Shown here piece by piece: positions 873-15,092 of a DNA stretch of 16,455 nt. Numbering within the stretch: the first letter of the stretch is position 1; each line of letters opens with the position of its first letter. Location: assembly GCA_039815375.1 (NCBI GenBank), contig JBCBZJ010000042.1, forward strand, positions 1-16,455, read 5' to 3'. The notes under the pieces were generated by a model, which saw only the letters and a program-made list of their open reading frames with translations, did not search any database and had not been told where the DNA came from. The position numbers were made by a program, and so were the translations under genes. The stretch comes from Verrucomicrobiota bacterium (GTDB lineage: Bacteria > Verrucomicrobiota > Verrucomicrobiia > Opitutales > Coraliomargaritaceae).

Positions 873-1613
873 CTACATATTGAAATCTTCGCCAAGGTAG
901 AACTCCCGGCTCTTTGGGTCGTTAATCAAAAAATCGCTGCTTCCCTCGCAGAGGACAGACCCCTGATGCAGCAAGTAGGCGCGATCTACAATGCTGAGAG
1001 TCTCACGCACATTGTGATCGGTAATAAGGACGCCAATACCACGTCTTGCGAGCTGGATAATAATCTTCTGCACTTCACTCACACTAATTGGATCGACGCC
1101 ACTAAATGGTTCATCCATCAGAAGGAACTTGGGCTCAGTAACAAGCGCACGGGAAATCTCCAAGCGCCGCCGCTCTCCTCCGCTCAACGTGTAGGCTTTT
1201 TGTTTCGCAAGATGAGTCAGGCCCAGCTCCTCAAGATGCTTCTCGACGCGCTCCTTGCGTTCGACCCGGCTTAAGGGTAAGGTCTCAGCAATTGCTCGAA
1301 TATTCTGCTCTACAGTCAGTTTGCGAAAGATTGAAGCCTCTTGGGGGAGATAGCCGATCCCGCAACGGGCCCGTCGATACATGGGCAAGTTGGTCAAGTC
1401 ACTGTCATCCAGAAAAACACTTCCTTCGGTCGCTGCAATCAGACCGACGACCATGTAGAAAGTAGTCGTTTTACCAGCTCCGTTTGGTCCGAGCAGGCCG
1501 ACAATTTCGCCTGCACTAACACTGATATCTACCTCGTTGACTACACGCCGCTTACCGAAATCGCGGACTAGACCACGGGTTTGTATCATCGGGGAAGCAG
1601 AATTCTCAGACAT
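873..1613 (-). CDS. lptB: LPS export ABC transporter ATP-binding protein LptB
   Basis: Walker A GPNGAGKTT, Q-loop YLPQEASIFRKL, LSGGERRR, LptB-type DEPFSGVDP, ITDHNVRETL and C-terminal YLGEDF. ATG at 1613 preferred over the track start at 1634. Confidence 0.95.
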   Translation of the reverse strand: MSENSASPMIQTRGLVRDFGKRRVVNEVDISVSAGEIVGLLGPNGAGKTTTFYMVVGLIAATEGSVFLDDSDLTNLPMYRRARCGIGYLPQEASIFRKLTVEQNIRAIAETLPLSRVERKERVEKHLEELGLTHLAKQKAYTLSGGERRRLEISRALVTEPKFLLMDEPFSGVDPISVSEVQKIIIQLARRGIGVLITDHNVRETLSIVDRAYLLHQGSVLCEGSSDFLINDPKSREFYLGEDFNM

Positions 1614-1679
1614 ATCTAGCTCGAACAAAAGCACTCACATCGAGTGGCGCAATGCATTCCTGCCGCCGAACTTGCAAAA

Positions 1680-3575
1680 TTAGTCCAATCCGCCCCCGGA
1701 TATAGCTGGAAGTGTAATCCGTGCACGCTCATTTTCAGGACCACCACCCTCAACAATAGCCCGGCGCTGTCCCTGCAAAAGTGTCATGCGAAAACCAGAA
1801 ACACGACCGCGCTCATCATTCACGACCGCGTCCTCTTCCAGGACAACTTTACCTTCCTGAGGCAGAATGAAAGCGCGCTCTGCTGTCGCGGTTCGGCCAG
1901 TTTGTTTAAACACGACGTTTTCGTGAGCCTCGATCCGGTCGACCTCAAGGCGTTCTGCTCCATTACTCGAAACTGCAGAGGAACTCTCCACTGCAACGAT
2001 GTCCAAGCGCTCACAAGTGGCTTCAAGGTTCGTCGCCACGACTCCCACAGATTCAGTAAAACGAAACAGGGTATGATCAGCTTCTTCAGTCATCCGTAGC
2101 AGTTGACTTCGGACAACGGTATTCTCGGATAGCGCCGAGGCTGCAACCTCCGGCTTTGTTTCAACCCCTTCGCCAGTAGCTTCAGCACGAGTCGGAGTAA
2201 AAGTTTCATAGCCCAAGTCAGGAAGTTCAGGCAGTTGCACAACTACGTCCATATCTCCATTACCCTCAACAATGGCCAATTTCGGCTGCAGCTCCATCCG
2301 ATGACCGGTGAGGATTGCCTCGTTATTTGTGATCTTTGGCGAACCGGTCAGCACAGCACGCTCTTTCTTCGGATAAAAAACCACCTTATCGCCTGTCGCA
2401 ACCTGACCGTTTTGTTCAATGCGAACCCCTCCTGCCGCCACCATACTACGAACCTCACCAACCTTAAGTGCATTCGTCTGCTCTTCATCGGTTTGGCCTG
2501 CCGCGGGAGAATTATCAGAATTGTTCGCCAGAATAGTCATACTGTCCGCATTAAGCATCACTGCACCCGACATCACTTCAACCCTTCCTTCAAAAAGAAA
2601 CTGATTCTCGGAATCCACCTCACGCATGGTGATTGTATCCGCCAGGACAATCGTCTCGTTGCTCAACGAGGACGCACCCTGGATGCCCAAACCACCCGTT
2701 TGCGTCAAAATCATTTGGGCTCTTCCTTCCGATGGGCTGCCTTCAATCACAATCTGCCCCTCTTGACTCCGAACAGAAACCCCGCTCAGGTAAGCTCCGG
2801 CAACCTCGATTTGAGGCTGACCGGACAAATCGGCTTTCATCTCACGTATCAGAAAAAGGGCTTTCTGGGAACGGACCGTGCGATCACCCTGAAGAATAAC
2901 AACATCATCGTGGGCAATGATCTTTTTTATCGTATCCAGCTTGCCGGAACCGAGATTCAAATCCTGATCATCGCGGTTTTTTGGTGCGTCGGCCAACGCA
3001 ATCAAAACTTCACTCTTCAGGTCCATTTCTCCCGAAACCGCGTGCACGGAACCGCTGAATTCGAAATTATACTCCGTCTCGGTCGTTTGCAGAACAAGTC
3101 GATCGCTCTTTATGATGGTTGAATTGTCTCCAACTGATCCATCCGTCGAAAGCCCACCTGAAATCGCCTGAGTGAACTCAACCACTGTGTCTGCCATGAC
3201 GACGATTTCTTTGCTTTCGCCTACCCATTCCCATCCGGTGCCGGAGATTCTAAAATTCGGACCTTCAATCACGATTGAGTCCTCTGAGAAAGCCCGATTC
3301 TCCTTCAGTTTCAAAGTCGCTTGCGGACTATCGAGGGTAAGCTCTTTAGCCATACGCTCATCTCCAGAATAAACTCGGAGAGCCATTTCTTCTACTCGAA
3401 TTTGCTCTTCGCTATCGTAGATACCCCTTTCGCCCTGGAGCACCCACTGAGTATAGCCATTCTCCCCGAAACGCGGGAATTTGAAATTTTTCACCGGAGC
3501 ACTCGGCGTCATCTGTGCAAACGCTCCGCTGCAAACAATCAAAGAAACTAAAAAAACTAAATTCCTTGAAGGCAT
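1680..3575 (-). CDS. Secreted multidomain LPS transport protein: LptC-like domain plus three LptA/OstA-like beta-jellyroll repeats (631 aa)
   Basis: Directly upstream of lptB. Signal peptide MPSRNLVFLVSLIVCSGAFA|Q from ATG at 3575. Three internal repeats carry LptA-like motifs (F.F.G.V, I.A...V...Q..R.A). The track start at 3689 would run through the predicted aspS terminator. Confidence 0.8.
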   Translation of the reverse strand: MPSRNLVFLVSLIVCSGAFAQMTPSAPVKNFKFPRFGENGYTQWVLQGERGIYDSEEQIRVEEMALRVYSGDERMAKELTLDSPQATLKLKENRAFSEDSIVIEGPNFRISGTGWEWVGESKEIVVMADTVVEFTQAISGGLSTDGSVGDNSTIIKSDRLVLQTTETEYNFEFSGSVHAVSGEMDLKSEVLIALADAPKNRDDQDLNLGSGKLDTIKKIIAHDDVVILQGDRTVRSQKALFLIREMKADLSGQPQIEVAGAYLSGVSVRSQEGQIVIEGSPSEGRAQMILTQTGGLGIQGASSLSNETIVLADTITMREVDSENQFLFEGRVEVMSGAVMLNADSMTILANNSDNSPAAGQTDEEQTNALKVGEVRSMVAAGGVRIEQNGQVATGDKVVFYPKKERAVLTGSPKITNNEAILTGHRMELQPKLAIVEGNGDMDVVVQLPELPDLGYETFTPTRAEATGEGVETKPEVAASALSENTVVRSQLLRMTEEADHTLFRFTESVGVVATNLEATCERLDIVAVESSSAVSSNGAERLEVDRIEAHENVVFKQTGRTATAERAFILPQEGKVVLEEDAVVNDERGRVSGFRMTLLQGQRRAIVEGGGPENERARITLPAISGGGLD

Positions 3576-3638
3576 AGAATTATGAAAAGCTACAGTGGAG
3601 CAAGTTCCCAACAAGAACAGATGCTGAACAGGTGTAAG

Positions 3639-3686
3639 GAAACAAAGAAAGCAGGACTGAAGGACATTCCTACTTTCCTGCTTTCT
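3639..3686 (-). terminator. Probable Rho-independent terminator of aspS
   Basis: Perfect 11-bp inverted repeat AGAAAGCAGGA (3646-3656) / TCCTGCTTTCT (3676-3686) with an inner AGGA/TCCT stem. On the minus strand it is followed by TTGTTT and starts 22 nt after the aspS stop. Confidence 0.7.
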
Positions 3687-3708
3687 CAATTAAATACTGA
3701 GCCACATC

Positions 3709-5502
3709 CTAAGTGTCGTCCTTTTTCGGAAGGATTGCTTTGATGTGAAGATCCCGAAGCTGCTTATCGGTCGCGATACCGGGGCTGGCCGTCATCATTT
3801 CCTGTCCTTTCTGGTTCTTCGGGAAGGCAATGACGTCGCGAATACTGCTTCGGCCTCCGAGAATAGTGACCATTCGGTCGAGCCCAAAGGCAATGCCACC
3901 GTGCGGCGGCGCGCCATAATCAAATGCACGAAGCATATAACCGAAGCGGCTTTCCACGACCTCTGGTTCGATCTTGAGCACGTCTTCGAAAACCTTCTTC
4001 TGCACTTCCGGCTGATGGATACGGATGGAACCGCCACCGAGTTCAACGCCGTTGAGAACAAGGTCGTAGTGCTGCCCGCGGACCTTCTTCGGATCGCTGT
4101 CGAGTAACGGAATATCCTCTTCGACCGGCGCGGTGAATGGATGGTGCGAGGCAACGAAACGGCCTTGCTCTTCATCAAACAGCATTAGTGGGAATTCAAT
4201 GACCCAAAGGAACTTGTAGTCAGCCGGGTCGATCGTGAGCTTCCCGCGCTTGACCAGCAACTGCGCCGCGTCGAGGCGAACACGGCCAAGAATCGTGCAG
4301 GCACGCTCCCATTCGGTAGCTGCAAAAAAGACAATGTCGCCCTCCTCGATGTTAAGCGTTTCCTTGAGTGCAGCCTTTTCCTCATCAGAGAAGAATTTAA
4401 GAATTGGTGATTTCCACTCACCGCCTTCTGACTTGATGAAGGCGAGGCCCTTCGCCCCGAGCGATTTAGCTGCATCTTCGAGGTTGCGTAGTTCACCCTG
4501 TGTGAGGTCGGCAAGCCCCTTCGCGTTGAAGGCCTTGATCGAACCACCGGAGTCGAGAGCACCCTTGAAAACCTTGAATTCCGAGTTGGCAAAAATCTCG
4601 GCACAATCCTGCAGCTCCAGACCGAAACGCATGTCTGGCTTATCAACACCGAAGCGGTTCATTGCATCGAAGTAGCTCATGCGAAGGAATGGTGTTTCCA
4701 AATCGATCCCGAGCACGTCCTTCCAAACACGTTTCATCAGACCTTCGATCAGCGCATACATGTCTTCGCGGTCAATGAAGGAGAGTTCGATATCGAGTTG
4801 GGTAAACTCGGGCTGCCGATCCGCACGCAGATCTTCGTCACGGAAGCAGCGGGCCAGTTGATAGTAGCGCTCGACCCCGGCAACCATCAGCATCTGCTTG
4901 TATTGCTGCGGACTCTGCGGAAGCGCATAAAACGCACCAGGGTTCATCCGGCTGGGCACGAGGAACTCGCGGGCACCCTCGGGGGTGCTTTTAAAGAGCA
5001 TCGGTGTTTCCACATCGAGAAAACCATTTTCATCCATGTAGTTGCGAACAGATTGGCTCGTCTGATGGCGCAACTTGAGTAGCTTCAGATTCGAGCTGCG
5101 GCGCAGATCCAGATAACGGTAAGTCATGCGGAGGTCTTCGCTCGTCTTGTCGGCCGAATCATCCATCGGGAAAGGAGGCGTCTTGGAGACATTGTGCACC
5201 TTAAGCTCGAAAGCGTGCACTTCAATGTCGCCCGTTTCCAGATTGGAGTTAACCGCTTCAGCGATACGCTCGCGAACTTCTCCAGCCACTTCGATCACTG
5301 ATTCCGGCTTAATTGAGCCGAATTGCGTTTCGAGGGCCGCATTACTAGGGTCGAGCACAATCTGGGTCAGGCCTTCGCGATCGCGAAGGTCGACAAAGAG
5401 AATACCGCCGTGGTCACGCACCGAATCCACCCATCCACTAAGCGTGGCGGAGGAACCGGCGTCGGATTTACGGAGTTGAGAGCAGTGGTGAGTGCGCATC
5501 AT
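3709..5502 (-). CDS. aspS: Aspartate--tRNA ligase (bacterial type, possibly non-discriminating)
   Basis: N-terminal MRTHHC, OB-fold RDHGG..FVDLRDREG, YRYLDLRR, TPEGAREFLVP, ALPQSPQ, motif 2 CFRDEDLRADRQPEFTQLD, HHPFT and motif 3 PPHGGIAFGLDR. Confidence 0.98.
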   Translation of the reverse strand: MMRTHHCSQLRKSDAGSSATLSGWVDSVRDHGGILFVDLRDREGLTQIVLDPSNAALETQFGSIKPESVIEVAGEVRERIAEAVNSNLETGDIEVHAFELKVHNVSKTPPFPMDDSADKTSEDLRMTYRYLDLRRSSNLKLLKLRHQTSQSVRNYMDENGFLDVETPMLFKSTPEGAREFLVPSRMNPGAFYALPQSPQQYKQMLMVAGVERYYQLARCFRDEDLRADRQPEFTQLDIELSFIDREDMYALIEGLMKRVWKDVLGIDLETPFLRMSYFDAMNRFGVDKPDMRFGLELQDCAEIFANSEFKVFKGALDSGGSIKAFNAKGLADLTQGELRNLEDAAKSLGAKGLAFIKSEGGEWKSPILKFFSDEEKAALKETLNIEEGDIVFFAATEWERACTILGRVRLDAAQLLVKRGKLTIDPADYKFLWVIEFPLMLFDEEQGRFVASHHPFTAPVEEDIPLLDSDPKKVRGQHYDLVLNGVELGGGSIRIHQPEVQKKVFEDVLKIEPEVVESRFGYMLRAFDYGAPPHGGIAFGLDRMVTILGGRSSIRDVIAFPKNQKGQEMMTASPGIATDKQLRDLHIKAILPKKDDT

Positions 5503-5619
5503 GGGAAACGCGCAAAGAAAACAGCTAAGCTAAGCAGAACAAGCATGAAAACAGCTCAATGATCGAGATGTGGCTATGTCCATTTGCAATTTCCGAATCA
5601 CTTGACAACATCATGCACC

Positions 5620-6069
5620 ATGAAACTTCGAACCATCACCACCGCTCTCCTCTTCGTATTCACTGCCAACTTTGCATCGGCTCACTGCCAGGTGCCCTGT
5701 GGTATTTTCAACGATGAGCTCAAATTCAGTGAACTTGAACAACACGTAGAAACCATCGCCAAGGCGGCACGCCTGATGAACGAGATTTCCGCAAAGGACG
5801 ATTCTGTTGCTTACGACCAGCAACAATTCGTTCGCTGGACCAAAACCAAGGAAGAGCACGCCCAAAAGATTATCGACGAAGCGGCTAACTACTTCCTGGC
5901 CCAGCGCATTAAAACTGACGCAGATCACTACGCCGAAAAAATCGAGCTACTTCATCACATTATGGTCAAAGCGATGAAAACCAAGCAAAGCACGGAGGCA
6001 GAAGCTTCCAAAGTCCTACTCGAAAAAATCGAGGCCTTCGAAAAGCTCTACCTCGACCATAAGCACTAG
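5620..6069 (+). CDS. sodN: Nickel superoxide dismutase precursor with signal peptide
   Basis: Ni-hook HCQVPCGIF (5683-5709; consensus HCxxPCGxY) directly follows the 21-aa leader MKLRTITTALLFVFTANFASA. Helical body contains RW..TKEEHA and YFLAQRIK. ATG at 5620 preferred over TTG at 5584. Confidence 0.92.
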   Translation: MKLRTITTALLFVFTANFASAHCQVPCGIFNDELKFSELEQHVETIAKAARLMNEISAKDDSVAYDQQQFVRWTKTKEEHAQKIIDEAANYFLAQRIKTDADHYAEKIELLHHIMVKAMKTKQSTEAEASKVLLEKIEAFEKLYLDHKH

Positions 6070-10317: not shown

Positions 10318-10992
10318 TTACGCAAGCCTACCAAGATGCAAGGTCAACTGGCGATGCGTGCGCCCAGCAAATTCAGCATTATGTGTGACCAAAATCAGGC
10401 TCTTTTCCTCCTCGGAAGTCATTTGCAGGAGGAGTTCCATAACCGCTTCTCCCGTTTTCTCGTCCAGATTACCAGTCGGCTCATCAGCCAGCAAGACTGC
10501 TGGATCATTGATCAAAGCCCGTGCGACAGCAACACGCTGGCGCTCTCCACCGGAAAGCTTAGTTGAACTATGCCTTAATCGATGGCCCATGCCAACCTTT
10601 TCAAGAAGCATAGCCGCCCGATCCTTCGTTGCACTGTCCACACTGCCTTGAATACGGGCAGCAAGCAGCACGTTCTCCATCGAGTTCAGTTCCGGAGCCA
10701 GATAGTAGGCCTGAAAGACAAATCCGATCCGCGACGCACGTTCCGCTGCAAGTGATGAAAGAGATAGAGATGAAACTTTTCGCTCGGACCAGAAAAGATC
10801 GCCTGAATCTGCCGTTTCCAGCCCGGAAAGCACATTCAGCAGTGTCGACTTACCTGAGCCAGATTCGCCCCTGATACTAACGCTCTCTCCCCGACCCAGT
10901 GAGAAATCGACACCATCAAGAACGGAGATCGCTTCATCGGCTGAATGAAATGACTTCGTCAGGCCAGACGCTTCTATTAAGGGCGCTTCCAT
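10318..10992 (-). CDS. lolD: Lipoprotein-releasing system ATP-binding protein LolD (LolD/MacB-type ABC ATPase)
   Basis: [45 protein letters not shown] and VTHN. ATG at 10992 lies 1 nt after the permease stop; an overlapping GTG at 11001 is an alternative start. Confidence 0.85.
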
Positions 10993-10993
10993 A

Positions 10994-12226
10994 TCACTCA
11001 CTGCGTAACGCATCGGCAGGTTTGAGGCGTGCGGCCCGGAAAGCCGGCAAGAGACCGGCCAAGGTAGAAACACCAATAGCAAAACAAGTCACGGTGACAA
11101 AGTCAGAGCTTAGGTAGTGCACCGGTATTTCGTAAACGTCATAGACACCGAGAAAGTTTACCTCGGATTGCGTCAATTTGCTATAGCCTGTCAGAATTGG
11201 ACGGCGAAAGTGAAGACAAAGCACCGCCATCGCGATACCAAGCAAAGTGCCCAGAGCGCCTATCACAAAACCCTGAAAGCAGAAACTGAGCGCAACCTGC
11301 CTCGGACGCGCTCCCATTGCGACGAGAAGCCCAATTTCCCGTGTTTTCCGAATCACAGCCATCATCAGGGCAATCGCAATGGAGAAGGATGCCACCAAAA
11401 TAATAAAAATTAGAATGAAGGAAATGACGCGTTTTTCCTGCTCCACAACAAAAAGAAAATCCCGATTCGACTCAAGCCAACTGACCGCCCGGAGACCCGG
11501 CCGAAGCAGCCCACCCTCAAGTTCTTCCGAATATTGGAAAGCATCCACTCCAGGCCGGAGCCTGAGAACCAGACCATGGACACCATCTTCAAGGCCGTAG
11601 AGCTCCTGCATGACGCGGAGCGTGGAGATCATTGTATTGCCATCGACCTGAGGAGAGCCTGTCCGGAAAAGGCCGACGACTTTGAACTCTCTGGGCAAGA
11701 GGACCTCATCCTCTTTCAGACGTTCCAGCATCAAGGGTGTAAAAACCTCAACAATCGAGCCAGGCCCAGCTTTTAAAGCGTAAGCTAGGCCTTCGCCTAA
11801 AAAGACCCCCTCATCATCGAAGTCGTCAAGATCACCGACAGTAATAAATTGTTCCATCGGGACCACATCCTCGCCGGTTAGCGGGTCGATACCTCGGATT
11901 ATAGGGAATTGCGGGCGGTTCTGATGCTGCAGCATGATTACGCCTTCCGCAAAAGGCGAAACCGCAAGAACATTTTCCTGTCCTTCCAGTCTATCGAAAT
12001 ACACCTCCCAGTCGAGGATCACCTCGCTTGATCGAATCCGGATATCCCCCTCCGTCTTTACCAGCCTCTGGCGAATCCCTTCGCCGAACCCATTCATCAC
12101 GCTCTGGACAATGATAAGCACACAAACGCCTAGCATTACCCCCACGATCGAAACGAATGAGAAGAAAGAAAAAAAGCGCCCCGAGGGAAAAAGCTGCTTC
12201 AGGGCATGGTAAAGATACCAAGGCAT
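10994..12226 (-). CDS. Lipoprotein-releasing ABC permease, LolC/E family (single permease gene)
   Basis: [22 protein letters not shown] (TM1), large periplasmic domain, [13 protein letters not shown] and [17 protein letters not shown]. Coupled to lolD. ATG at 12226 (MPWYLY) preferred. Confidence 0.9.
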
Positions 12227-12307
12227 CCAATCAGTTCTCGACGATAGAACTCCGGAGGCAAAGCGAAAAACACGTCGAATCGCGAAATTCGGAAATAATT
12301 TTGAAAC

Positions 12308-12337
12308 TTCACAACGAATAAAAACCATATATAACAT
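12308..12337 (+). promoter_or_regulatory. Possible sigma70-type promoter for the DUF1800-DUF1501 operon
   Basis: TTCACA (12308-12313), then 18 nt, then TAACAT (12332-12337), in an AT-rich divergent gap 17 nt before the ATG at 12355. Confidence 0.3.
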
Positions 12338-12354
12338 GTAAAAGACGACGAATC

Positions 12355-13857
12355 ATGGCCACGCCATTGCCTACCCCCTCCTCCTTCAGCGTAAAAGACG
12401 CTTGGAAACCATTGCCCAAAGGTGCTTGGAATGAAGTTCATGCGGCGCATCTTTTGCGCCGTATAGGCTTCGCCGCGACTCCTGAATTAGTGCAGTCCGC
12501 ACTGCAGACAAACGTCGAAACAACCATTAGCAAAGCCTTCAGGGATGCCGAGCCACTGGTTAAAAGCAAAGCACTTTCCGAATTTGCGGCTACGGCAAAC
12601 GAAAACTACCGCGCCATCTATCGAGACCTGAAGACTCAGGAAGAGAAAAGGGATCGGCGTAATGAGTTACGTAAAGAGGACAACAAGCTTTTCCGGGAAT
12701 ACGGGATGAGCTGGTTCAGGCATGCCCGCAAACAAAGGAACAGTGCCACCGAAAAACTGGTCCTCTTTCTCCAGGATGTCTTTGTCGTTGACCGGCGCAC
12801 CATTCAGGACACTCCCTCCCTTTTCAACATGCAGCAAATCCTCCGTGAAGGATTGGGCATGAAATACGATGATTTGTGCAAGTGGGTAAGCCGTGAACCG
12901 GCTATGATTCGATATCTGGATCTGGACAAGAACACGGCTCGCAAACCCAACGAGAACTTCGCTCGTGAACTCTTTGAACTCTTCACCCTCGGTGAAGGCA
13001 ACTACACGGAGACCGACATCAAGGAAGCTGCGCGTGCCTTCACTGGCTACCGAGCGCGTAATCGCTACGAGTTCTACTTCCAGCGTAAACTGCACGATAC
13101 AGATAGAAAGACCGTCTTTAACGAAACAGGTAATTGGGATGGCGACGACATTATCGACATCACCTTCCGCCAGCCTGCAGCCAAAACCTACCTGATCAAA
13201 GAACTCTTTAAATTCTATCTTACTGAAGAAACAGTTCATAGGGAATATGTAGAAGAGCTCGGTAACATGTGGGCCAACCATGACTTCGAGCTGAGCTATC
13301 TTGTTAACACCTTCTTCGGGAGCCAATTGTTCTATCATCCGGCTTTCCAAGGCAACTTGGTCAAAAGCCCGGTTCATTTCTATCTTGGCCTCTGTCAGGA
13401 CTTGCGCCTCGACGTGGTGCCCTTCGAATCACGACTCCTACGCAGTATGGATGTGATGGGCCAATCCTTTTACAATCCGCCAAATGTCCAAGGGTGGCTC
13501 TATGGTGAATACTGGATCAACTCCACCACCATTAGTGCCAGACGGCAACTCGTCGACTATCTCTTTACAGCCCTAAACGAAGAAAAGCTAAACGGCAACG
13601 ACCAGAAATCACTAAAGATCGCCCGCAACGAAGGCAGAGGCGACTTTCTAGTTACACAGGACCGTCTTACACAACTCACCAGTTTGGAGCCTTCTGAAAT
13701 AGCGACTCACCTAACCAAGTATTTAATCACCGCACCTTCACGCCCTACCTATAAACCAGTCCTTCAGAATCTCCTGAGAAGCAGCGATAGCTTGGATAAC
13801 AGCATTCGCTATGCGATCATCGCCCTCCTTCAGTCACCCGCCTACAACCTCTGCTGA
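12355..13857 (+). CDS. DUF1800 family protein
   Basis: AAHLLRRIGFA, PAMIRYLD, NENFARELFELFTLGEG.YTETDIKEAARAFTG, KSP, PPNVQGW and C-terminal LLQSPAY. Typical pairing with DUF1501. Confidence 0.9.
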   Translation: MATPLPTPSSFSVKDAWKPLPKGAWNEVHAAHLLRRIGFAATPELVQSALQTNVETTISKAFRDAEPLVKSKALSEFAATANENYRAIYRDLKTQEEKRDRRNELRKEDNKLFREYGMSWFRHARKQRNSATEKLVLFLQDVFVVDRRTIQDTPSLFNMQQILREGLGMKYDDLCKWVSREPAMIRYLDLDKNTARKPNENFARELFELFTLGEGNYTETDIKEAARAFTGYRARNRYEFYFQRKLHDTDRKTVFNETGNWDGDDIIDITFRQPAAKTYLIKELFKFYLTEETVHREYVEELGNMWANHDFELSYLVNTFFGSQLFYHPAFQGNLVKSPVHFYLGLCQDLRLDVVPFESRLLRSMDVMGQSFYNPPNVQGWLYGEYWINSTTISARRQLVDYLFTALNEEKLNGNDQKSLKIARNEGRGDFLVTQDRLTQLTSLEPSEIATHLTKYLITAPSRPTYKPVLQNLLRSSDSLDNSIRYAIIALLQSPAYNLC

Positions 13858-13859
13858 TT

Positions 13860-15092
13860 ATGAATGAATTACCCTTAACTCGCCGCGAATTCATACGTCG
13901 TTCGTCAGGAGGTGGCCTCGGTTTTTTGGCCTTCAGCGGAGTGGCCCCCTCATTCCTTGCCAAGAGCGCACTTGCTCAGACTCCTGGGCCCGAGCGCGAC
14001 CGCACCATATTGGTTGTGATCCAGCTTGCAGGGGGAAACGACGGACTGAATACCGTCGTCCCCCACACCGACGATAATTACTTCAACCTGCGCCCAAAAC
14101 TCGCCATCCGTAAGGGTCTTCTTCCGATTAACGAAGACCTTGGCTTCAACCCTGCCTGCCGCAAGCTACACCAGCTCTTCAACGAAGGTCAGCTATCCAT
14201 CATTCAAAACGTCGGCTATCCGAATCCGAATCGTAGCCACTTCCGTTCAACTGAGATATGGGAAACCGCTTCCTCAAGTGAAAATGTGCAGCGAGAAGGC
14301 TGGCTTGGCCGCTATTTTGACAATGCATGTTCCGGTAGCCCGGACGAAGATGCTGATCCAACCGCCGTTCATCTCAGTGACATGATTCCTCAGAGCTATC
14401 TTTCAGAGAAATCACATAGTCTGTTCGGAATGAAGTCATCTGGGCGCTTCGACAGGGGCACTGACCCTGCCGATCTTGCTTACGAAAAACTGCTTCAGGC
14501 TGAACATATCGAAGGCAACGCCAGCTATTTGCAGCACACTATGATGAACACACTCGTCACCGAAAGACGGGTAGAAAAGATTATCTCCCGCTACAAGCCG
14601 ATGGCACGATATCCGGGCAATAAGCTTGCTCAGTCACTCCGCCGCGTGGCCGCTTTGATTCATGCCGACATGGAAACCCGAGTGTACTACGTCTCTCAAG
14701 GCGGTTATGATACCCACTCGGGACAACTTAGTAGGCATACTCGACTACTGGCGGAGCTATCCGGAGCGATGCAGGCCTTCCAACAAGATTTGGTTGCTCA
14801 CAAGAAGGACGATCAGGTCATGACAATGACCTTTTCAGAATTTGGCCGTCGCCCATCCGAGAATGGTAGTGCAGGCACGGACCACGGAACTGCGGCACCA
14901 CTCTTCGTTATGGGTTCCAAGGTTAATGGCGGACTGATGGGAAGCGCTCCAGATCTAAACATCGGAGAAAACAAAGATCTCAAATTCAGCACGGATTTTC
15001 GAAGTGTTTACAGCAGCGTGCTGGACCGCTGGTTTGATGCCGACTCCAGCTCCATACTAGGTGAAAAGTTTGATCACTTGCCATTTGTCTGA
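13860..15092 (+). CDS. DUF1501 family protein with twin-arginine (Tat) signal
   Basis: TRREFI plus a hydrophobic stretch and ALA|Q. Motifs LVVIQLAGGNDGLN, PNRSHF, GWLGR, GGYDTH, FSEFGRR and GTDHG. Starts 2 nt after the DUF1800 stop. Confidence 0.92.
   Translation: MNELPLTRREFIRRSSGGGLGFLAFSGVAPSFLAKSALAQTPGPERDRTILVVIQLAGGNDGLNTVVPHTDDNYFNLRPKLAIRKGLLPINEDLGFNPACRKLHQLFNEGQLSIIQNVGYPNPNRSHFRSTEIWETASSSENVQREGWLGRYFDNACSGSPDEDADPTAVHLSDMIPQSYLSEKSHSLFGMKSSGRFDRGTDPADLAYEKLLQAEHIEGNASYLQHTMMNTLVTERRVEKIISRYKPMARYPGNKLAQSLRRVAALIHADMETRVYYVSQGGYDTHSGQLSRHTRLLAELSGAMQAFQQDLVAHKKDDQVMTMTFSEFGRRPSENGSAGTDHGTAAPLFVMGSKVNGGLMGSAPDLNIGENKDLKFSTDFRSVYSSVLDRWFDADSSSILGEKFDHLPFV

Follow-up and report, generated by a model that had tools for sequence, protein, structure and literature searches.

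A single gene for one LptC-like and three LptA-like domains: a probable one-piece segment of the lipopolysaccharide transport bridge in a family of Verrucomicrobiota

Here we describe a gene from a Verrucomicrobiota bacterium (Opitutales, Coraliomargaritaceae) that encodes an LptC-like domain followed by three LptA-like domains in one polypeptide. The gene lies on the minus strand, at positions 1680-3575, of a 16,455-nucleotide stretch of DNA (the window), which comprises positions 1 to 16,455 of contig JBCBZJ010000042.1 in assembly GCA_039815375.1. It consists of 631 codons and a stop codon (1680-1682) and was recognized from its open reading frame (ORF) and translation together with Pfam and NCBIfam matches; its product is designated P0002 below. 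In E. coli, the lipopolysaccharide (LPS) transport bridge has the composition LptB2FGC-LptA-LptDE, and LptC (YrbK) and LptA (YhbN) are separate proteins. We put the probability that P0002 is a one-piece segment of such a bridge, with the domain order C-A-A-A (C, LptC-like; A, LptA-like), at roughly 0.8.

One polypeptide combines an LptC-like domain and three homologous LptA-like repeats

All features of the gene are on the minus strand. The LptC-like beta-jellyroll domain covers amino acid residues (aa) 22-138 (positions 3162-3512) and was delimited by PF06835, TIGR04409 and model superposition. A variable linker, C-A1 (aa 139-152; 3120-3161), which measures 13-25 aa in orthologues and has 17% identity, leads to the first LptA-like domain, A1 (aa 153-297; 2685-3119), assigned through LptD_N, a custom hidden Markov model (HMM) of the repeats, BLASTP and a domain tree. 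A short conserved junction of 10 aa with 47% identity (aa 298-307; 2655-2684) joins A1 to A2 (aa 308-455; 2211-2654), for which PF03968, TIGR03002 and model superposition were used. A second variable linker, A2-A3 (aa 456-485; 2121-2210; 15-48 aa in orthologues, 18% identity), precedes A3 (aa 486-625; 1701-2120), which was assigned by model superposition, a profile match to sequences of the Protein Data Bank (PDB) and the tree. A preliminary description of this DNA, made from the sequence by eye, had let the three repeats start at 3119, 2654 and 2120, corresponding to aa 153, 308 and 486. These starts agree with the HMM and model boundaries, and every motif quoted in support of the repeats recurs in the translated protein (aa 153/308/486, 171/326/504 and onward).

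When the whole protein was searched with Pfam, LptC (PF06835) matched aa 36-117 (E 1e-9; 38.7 bits against a cut-off of 21) and LptD_N/LptA (PF03968) matched aa 312-430 (E 2.8e-21; 76.3 bits against a cut-off of 20.4). The NCBIfam model for LptC, TIGR04409, was passed as well (42.4 bits; cut-off 38). The LptC profile matches span aa 28-117 and cover profile positions ~75-162 only. Scanned on their own, A1 and A2 were recognized by LptD_N with E 9e-5 (23.1 bits) and E 4.2e-12 (46.7 bits), respectively, and the custom repeat HMM detected A1 with E 2e-52. The scans by Pfam, by NCBIfam and of single repeats thus give an LptC domain followed by LptA-like domains, which is the C-A-A-A order originally proposed. 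Judged by sequence, A2 is the most canonical LptA-like repeat.

Pairwise BLASTP detected 26% identity between A1 and A2 (136 aa, E 2e-12), 26% between A2 and A3 (142 aa, E 2e-7) and 27% between A1 and A3 (151 aa, E 3e-8). In these comparisons the three repeats are homologous, with a likeness well above chance. A profile built from 43 family members retrieved the LptA chains 7zax, 2r19 and 4uu4 from the PDB sequences via A3 (E 2.4e-4 to 4.4e-4), while a single-sequence phmmer search of the PDB sequences returned no Lpt chain and merely a chance match to Pal (E 0.22).

Modelled domains superpose on solved Lpt jellyrolls

An AlphaFold2 model of P0002, computed from a 43-sequence alignment, consists of four all-beta blocks and reaches a mean predicted local distance difference test score (pLDDT) of 85.4 and a predicted template modelling score (pTM) of 0.77; the ESM Atlas model of the same protein has a pTM of 0.73. 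Stretches of low confidence are the C-A1 linker (~141-150, mean pLDDT 58 at aa 141-150), loops within the repeats (203-213 and 358-366) and the A2-A3 linker (pLDDT below 50 at aa 462-467).

The predicted model was compared with solved chains using VIA-align. A3 superposed on E. coli LptA chain 2r1a_C with a Z score of 15.8 and a root-mean-square deviation (rmsd) of 2.0 Å over 128 of 135 residues, on LptA 2r19_B with Z 15.6 and on Pseudomonas LptH 4uu4 with Z 15.4 (rmsd 1.9 Å, 130 residues aligned). For A2, E. coli LptA 8gak_A was matched with Z 11.2 (rmsd 2.2 Å, 98 aligned). At the other end of the protein, model residues 23-186 superposed on LptC 6mit_C (Z 15.4, rmsd 2.3 Å, 143 aligned), and the LptC-like domain also matched the LptC chains 6mjp_C (Z 14.3), 4b54_A (Z 13.2) and 3my2 (Z 13.1). 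Matches to LptD cover model residues 33-249 and 41-270, the latter being aligned with the LptD N-terminal domain of 5iv9_A (Z 14.3, rmsd 2.8 Å, 162 aligned). The domains hence model as Lpt jellyrolls of the LptC, LptA and LptD N-terminal types, as had been anticipated from the letters of the sequence, with identities to the superposed solved chains of only 10-15%. Both the LptC and the LptD matches cross the C/A1 junction at low rmsd, as one continuous jellyroll would give. In-line geometry, continuity of the groove and length of the four-domain chain are inferred. Foldseek searches with the whole 631-aa model returned poor global fits (template modelling scores 0.1-0.2, rmsd above 30 Å) to LptD, teneurins and other beta-rich chains, and for this reason the per-domain ranges from VIA-align were used.

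We also predicted a complex of A3 (aa 480-631) with the N-terminal domain of the LptD encoded in this genome. This pair scored 0.54 and the best of three controls 0.00, at least 97% of contacts were common to the runs, and the pLDDT of the partners was at least 79. Of 157 solved complexes, 116 attain the mark applied here, as do 2 of 215 mismatched pairs; in the score range up to 0.60, however, no more than 18 of these solved complexes attain it, along with the two mismatches, so that the docking of A3 on LptD is weakly supported. Moreover, A3-LptD represents a textbook pair, and a weak pass may therefore reflect likeness to, or memory of, solved Lpt complexes.

The fused gene lies before lptB and is the sole lptC/lptA homologue found in a genome with LPS genes

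The gene that follows P0002 is lptB, encoding the ATPase of the LPS exporter (873-1634, minus strand; TIGR04406, E 8.8e-107, 355.8 bits against a cut-off of 240). It starts 45 bases downstream of the fused gene and is itself followed by hprK. The placement before lptB in the preliminary description is thereby corroborated, and the fused gene and lptB are likely co-transcribed. On the upstream side, aspS is the neighbour (3709-5502, minus strand; NF001750, E 4e-242). Scans for promoters, terminators and tRNAs around the fused gene gave nothing informative.

The genome comprises 66 contigs and is 99.89% complete, and all but 3,511 bases of it were covered. PF06835 matched the fused gene alone; PF03968 additionally matched the LptD frame of contig 2 and nothing else. 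HMMs built from the family had no other match among the 23,062 ORFs of at least 60 aa in this genome. A question raised at the outset, whether further lptC or lptA genes exist in the genome, is hence answered in the negative for the PF03968, PF06835 and family HMM scans. The genes lptD, lptE, lptF, lptG, lpxC and kdtA were all found in the same genome. Taken together, the set of LPS and Lpt genes and the sole LptC/LptA homologue argue for an LPS producer with one Lpt machine, for which the fused chain is the only candidate for the periplasmic carrier.

The reading frame on the minus strand is open across 1680-3689. As homologues align only from the hydrophobic stretch behind the ATG at 3575, we consider this ATG the likely start, yielding 631 aa. 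A TTG at 3689 was dismissed, as the extra 38 residues are common to no homologue. Databases place the start differently: many orthologues begin at a conserved M22 (MTPNAP...; 597-607 aa), and the record of the window's own protein begins at V28 (604 aa). Starts at M22 or V28 would drop the N-terminus that resembles a signal peptide, and an Lpt protein would then stay in the cytoplasm. The upstream ATG is therefore the more plausible start.

This N-terminus (MPSRNLVFLVSLIVCSGAFA followed by Q; aa 1-21, 3513-3575) is a predicted Sec signal peptide, judged by eye. It comprises an n-region with R, a short hydrophobic run of ~15 aa and a small-x-small motif (AFA), after which the conserved QMTP follows; the segment may also be an uncleaved anchor. 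The AlphaFold2 model has a helix at aa 3-18. Homologues, whether fused or not, carry a basic residue, 10-16 hydrophobic residues, small-x-small and then Q-M-T-P, so the pattern is kept although the sequence of aa 1-21 is variable (22% mean identity in homologues). Reading the 'LIVC' in this segment as a lipoprotein signal was set aside, because the position of the Cys varies in homologues while the small-x-small site before Q is kept.

The fusion is conserved in the family and older than its radiation

To the family of the window, the Coraliomargarita-like Opitutales, belong 22 of the genomes in a sample of 301 from the phylum, each at least 90% complete. The fusion was found in 21 of these 22: besides the window's own gene, one full-length orthologue with 40-68% identity is present in 20 of the 21 other family genomes. 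The 21 family loci that were fetched, own locus included, all carry C-A-A-A in a single ORF free of stops, and complete single-contig genomes are among them. The intact frame claimed for the gene is thus seen again, with the same four domains, in 21 of the 22 family genomes sampled. Directly downstream of the fused gene lies lptB in 15 of the 21 family loci, and aspS lies upstream in 15 of the 21.

Orthologues were also retrieved more widely, at 40-71% identity. A word-indexed search yielded 289 relatives, the best 120 of which have 597-726 aa and are 51-71% identical; among these best 120 of 289 are proteins named 'LptA/OstA family protein' from Coraliomargarita, Thalassobacterium, Puniceicoccaceae and Opitutales. 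Among 37 orthologues the mean identity is 63% for C, 50% for A1, 50% for A2 and 54% for A3. The A1-A2 junction is exactly 10 aa long in all 37.

In 10 genomes of sister families from the same order, C, A and lptB are separate ORFs that follow one another in this sequence, and 25 of 26 genomes of family f3 gave a C-like match and, apart from it, an A-like one. A maximum-likelihood tree was calculated from 96 LptA-type domains, with support given as ultrafast bootstrap (UFboot)/SH-aLRT. The A1, A2 and A3 domains of the family each fall on one side of a branch (99/98, 99/94 and 91/93, respectively). Since each repeat groups across the family, the triplication is older than the radiation of the family. 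A3 groups with stand-alone LptAs in this tree, and stand-alone LptAs match P0002 at aa ~480-630; from these sequence comparisons, A3 is the repeat closest to the stand-alone LptA of the sister families. The fusion probably arose in an ancestor of the family, when an lptC and an adjoining lptA were joined and two duplications of a domain took place.

Repeat number varies among relatives and fusions arose independently

HMMER, run exhaustively against 1.84 billion cluster representatives, produced 768 matches, and the best 150 were sorted by architecture. Besides C-A-A-A (24 entries), these 150 include C only (44), C-A-A-A-A (32), A only (29), C-A (11), A-A (7), A-A-A (2) and one entry with no module; some of the short entries are fragments from short contigs. 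Frames of family f7, 870 and 909 aa in length, encode one C followed by four A, as does one gene of a metagenome-assembled genome labelled 'uncultured Opitutales bacterium'. In the C-A-A-A-A proteins (e.g. P0156, P0164 and P0178, and locus L051), the third repeat is consistently matched by only the initial ~100 of the ~154 HMM positions, with a long spacer behind it, which suggests a truncated or remodelled module.

Chains with three repeats also occur outside the family. In the f3 genome G159 (locus L045; G159:C8, ORF 3242-5164), a C-A-A-A gene has three repeats that cluster together in the tree (99/94), and the same holds for the three repeats of the C-A-A-A protein P0148 (100/98). As these repeats group within themselves and not with the A1, A2 and A3 of the family, they represent independent triplications, and their clustering points to more recent events. 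Genome G278 has a C gene followed by a separate A-A gene.

In family f19, and likewise in a single genome of f26, lptB is immediately preceded by frames of 740-1,132 aa. They contain LptC and 3-4 significant stretches of Pfam LptD_N (4-5 by the custom HMM). Loci L052 (G006), L053 (G010), L054 (G115), L055 (G052) and L058 (G127), with frames of 839-1,132 aa, provide examples of single-chain bridges that would be longer than that of the window. At locus L048 (G188:C1, 3739-5265), upstream of lptB-hprK, an in-frame TAG stands between a C-A frame of 338 aa and an adjacent A frame of 170 aa; possible causes are a split, a fusion that has broken up or an error in sequencing. Among full-length structural neighbours in the ESM Atlas (template modelling scores 0.66-0.76), the commonest phyla of the clusters are Lentisphaerota (858 aa), Planctomycetota (658 aa) and Aminicenantota (631 aa), and a search by features gave a 676-aa cluster that is commonest in Acidobacteriota. 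The count of repeats in relatives, to which the preliminary description had drawn attention, therefore varies, from a separate single lptA to fusions with 3, 4 or ~5 LptA domains.

Proposed function of the chain and alternative explanations

By analogy with the E. coli Lpt system and the PEZ model, we propose that the chain would be exported by Sec and cleaved between AFA and Q. Its N-terminal LptC-like domain would join the periplasmic jellyroll of LptF/LptG edge-to-edge, the groove would be extended head to tail by the three LptA-like domains, and the last domain, A3, would dock on the N-terminal jellyroll of LptD. LptB2FG, at the expense of ATP, would extract LPS, which would then be pushed along one continuous hydrophobic groove to LptDE. 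Since the units are covalently joined, the stoichiometry of one C to three A would be fixed by the gene and not by self-association of LptA. In the available text of PMC12065857, an engineered E. coli LptC-LptA fusion is described as stable in complex with LptB2FG and as supporting LPS transfer to LptD in vitro, which indicates that covalent linkage is compatible with function.

Several observations weigh against a role of P0002 as a bridge segment. On A2, the LptA equivalog model TIGR03002 gave E 2.6e-14 and 53.3 bits, which is below its threshold of 71.7, and the repeats are consequently filed as LptA-like domains of the OstA/LptD_N family and not as LptA equivalogs. A3 scanned alone obtained E 1.8e-3 and 18.9 bits with LptD_N, slightly below the cut-off of 20.4; together, the two shortfalls indicate that the domains are divergent. 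Canonical LptC is anchored in the inner membrane by a single N-terminal transmembrane helix, whereas the sequence of the P0002 N-terminus looks like a cleavable signal peptide. An E. coli LptC without the membrane helix is reported as functional in the accessible part of PMC5575297. Within the family, genome G204, in which all but 8,000 bases were covered, gave no orthologue match, and lptB is absent from ~1.5 kb downstream in 6 of the 21 loci (L015-L019 and L024); the linkage of lptCAAA and lptB is broken in part of the family. Finally, two of the linkers are variable in length and poorly modelled, and going by the model a rigid in-line rod is not assured.

The latter point also bears on what the fusion is good for. 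P0002 might be a bridge segment that is no ruler of fixed length: the fusion would secure assembly and the 1:3 stoichiometry, for instance by averting runaway LptA oligomers, other factors would set the width of the periplasm, and the variable linkers would act as hinges or slack. We regard this as a tenable, though tentative, explanation, to which we give somewhat less than even odds. It accords with the variation of the C-A1 (13-25 aa) and A2-A3 (15-48 aa) linkers and their low pLDDT. Furthermore, purified E. coli LptA oligomerises and thereby hampers work in vitro, which prompted the engineered fusion according to the portion of PMC12065857 at hand, and monomeric LptA is tolerated by E. coli, as stated in the excerpted text of PMC5575297. 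However, 3-5 LptA domains were fixed repeatedly in independent lineages, the A1-A2 junction never deviates from 10 aa in the 37 orthologues, and the pTM of 0.77 suggests a defined overall arrangement.

Alternatively, the number of LptA modules in one gene could be a molecular ruler that matches, or helps to set, the distance between inner and outer membrane. We deem this doubtful, as an idea whose odds are clearly unfavourable. That 3-5 units were fixed repeatedly and independently lends plausibility to a length requirement; the variable linkers and the ability of the stand-alone LptA of sister families to oligomerise speak against a ruler. For E. coli, Laguri et al. give ~16 nm for LptFG-LptC-one LptA-LptDE compared with a periplasm of 21 nm, and the LptA multimer is described there as 'of unknown length' (PMC5575297, in the text available). 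By rough extrapolation, two more LptA units would extend the bridge to very roughly 24-28 nm. If the chain were a ruler, envelope width could be read from the genome, and one-piece bridges would tell the number of LptA units that span the periplasm in these organisms, a number still open for E. coli. It has been suggested that Coraliomargarita akajimensis lacks peptidoglycan (PMC3422733, as far as its available text goes); should this hold for the family, a covalent Lpt bridge of fixed length might matter more for envelope spacing.

It is improbable that P0002 is a polyprotein which is cut in the periplasm at the variable linkers, its LptC-like and LptA-like products then assembling as in E. 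coli. Two linkers are indeed unconserved and predicted to be disordered, and sister families use separate proteins. Yet the A1-A2 junction is short and conserved, and the structural matches run across the C/A1 junction as a single jellyroll. The several independent fusions would be hard to explain if each were undone after export, and we know of no protease site or precedent for Lpt proteins.

Even less credit is due to the idea that the chain moves surface lipoproteins, another glycolipid or some other cargo in place of LPS. Such a role was proposed for the Lpt homologues of Borrelia as lipoprotein carriers (bioRxiv 10.1101/2022.12.21.521298, available text), and the divergence of the P0002 domains from the LptA equivalog model would fit it. 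But the genome possesses lpxC, kdtA, lptD, lptE and just one LptC/LptA homologue, and if this homologue served another cargo, LPS export would be left without a periplasmic carrier. That the long frame is an artefact of assembly or annotation, i.e. a hidden frameshift or merged genes, can practically be dismissed: the assembly is a 66-contig draft and database records differ in the start, but the same stop-free four-domain frame recurs in all 21 fetched loci, complete single-contig genomes included.

Relation to known Lpt systems

A bridge segment as proposed here shares several properties with E. coli LptC and LptA: PF06835 is followed by PF03968, both are encoded just before lptB, and the modelled jellyrolls superpose on 6mit_C, 3my2, 2r1a and 2r19 with Z 13-16. 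In contrast to E. coli, where the proteins are separate and LptA forms a multimer, P0002 is one polypeptide with three LptA units. It also differs from E. coli LptC in its N-terminus, which by its residues resembles a signal peptide, and in the LptC-like domain, which has only ~117 aa. With the engineered E. coli fusion P0002 has in common that LptC is covalently linked to LptA, but that protein is man-made and has one LptA, whereas P0002 is natural and has three (PMC12065857, as described in its available text).

Natural chains of Lpt modules are not restricted to the family. Thermotoga maritima G4FGC1, called 'pABC permease', is a natural Lpt-module chain and a proposed lipid carrier between membranes; it fuses parts resembling LptF/G, LptA and LptD, and its host has no LPS (PMC10160955, from the part available). 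Unlike G4FGC1, P0002 fuses LptC and LptA only, and its host makes LPS and has lptF, lptG and lptD as separate genes. Further counterparts are the natural LptC-(LptA)n chains of Verrucomicrobiota, Lentisphaerota, Planctomycetota, Acidobacteriota and Aminicenantota, which consist of the same modules and are often encoded directly before lptB, but which differ from P0002 in repeat number and are in some cases of independent origin. Similar to P0002, the Lpt bridge of Borrelia burgdorferi contains an LptC without canonical membrane helix, and its modelled length was compared with the width of the periplasm. The Borrelia LptC is, however, a predicted lipoprotein, its LptA is a separate, enlarged single domain, and the proposed cargo is lipoprotein (bioRxiv 10.1101/2022.12.21.521298, all according to the text at hand).

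In a survey of outer-membrane genes of Planctomycetes and Verrucomicrobia, LptD was covered, but not LptA or LptC, in the text available to us (PMC3422733). In a search of full-text literature, with subscription-only papers outside its scope, no paper came up that describes natural LptC-(LptA)n fusions. In databases such proteins are labelled LptA/OstA or LptC; their assignment to the family is thus already known, whereas the fixed multi-module architecture, its phylogenetic pattern and the implications appear to be undescribed so far.

A natural chain of one LptC and three LptA would provide a defined stoichiometry for a whole bacterial family, and as a single polypeptide it would be an attractive sample for structural work on the complete periplasmic bridge. 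Along with the relatives that have separate genes, four domains or ~5 domains, it offers a natural series for testing bridge length against periplasm width. More generally, the chain shows an essential envelope machine being remodelled, beyond the model Proteobacteria, by repeated gene fusion and domain duplication.

Other genes in the window

Three further gene groups of the window were annotated in passing. At 10318-12337 on the minus strand lie a lolD-like gene (TIGR02211, E 6.9e-69) and a lolC/E-like gene (TIGR02212, E 6.7e-74), which correspond to an ATP-binding cassette system for lipoprotein release; both score below the equivalog cut-offs. Their ORFs overlap by 89 bases (10994-11082), and one of the starts is therefore probably mis-set. 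A nickel superoxide dismutase gene (Sod_Ni, E 1.9e-29; 5584-6069, plus strand) is located between aspS and priA on the opposite strand. Finally, an adjoining gene pair encodes DUF1800 (E 6e-87) and DUF1501 (E 2.2e-29) proteins at 12355-15092 on the plus strand.

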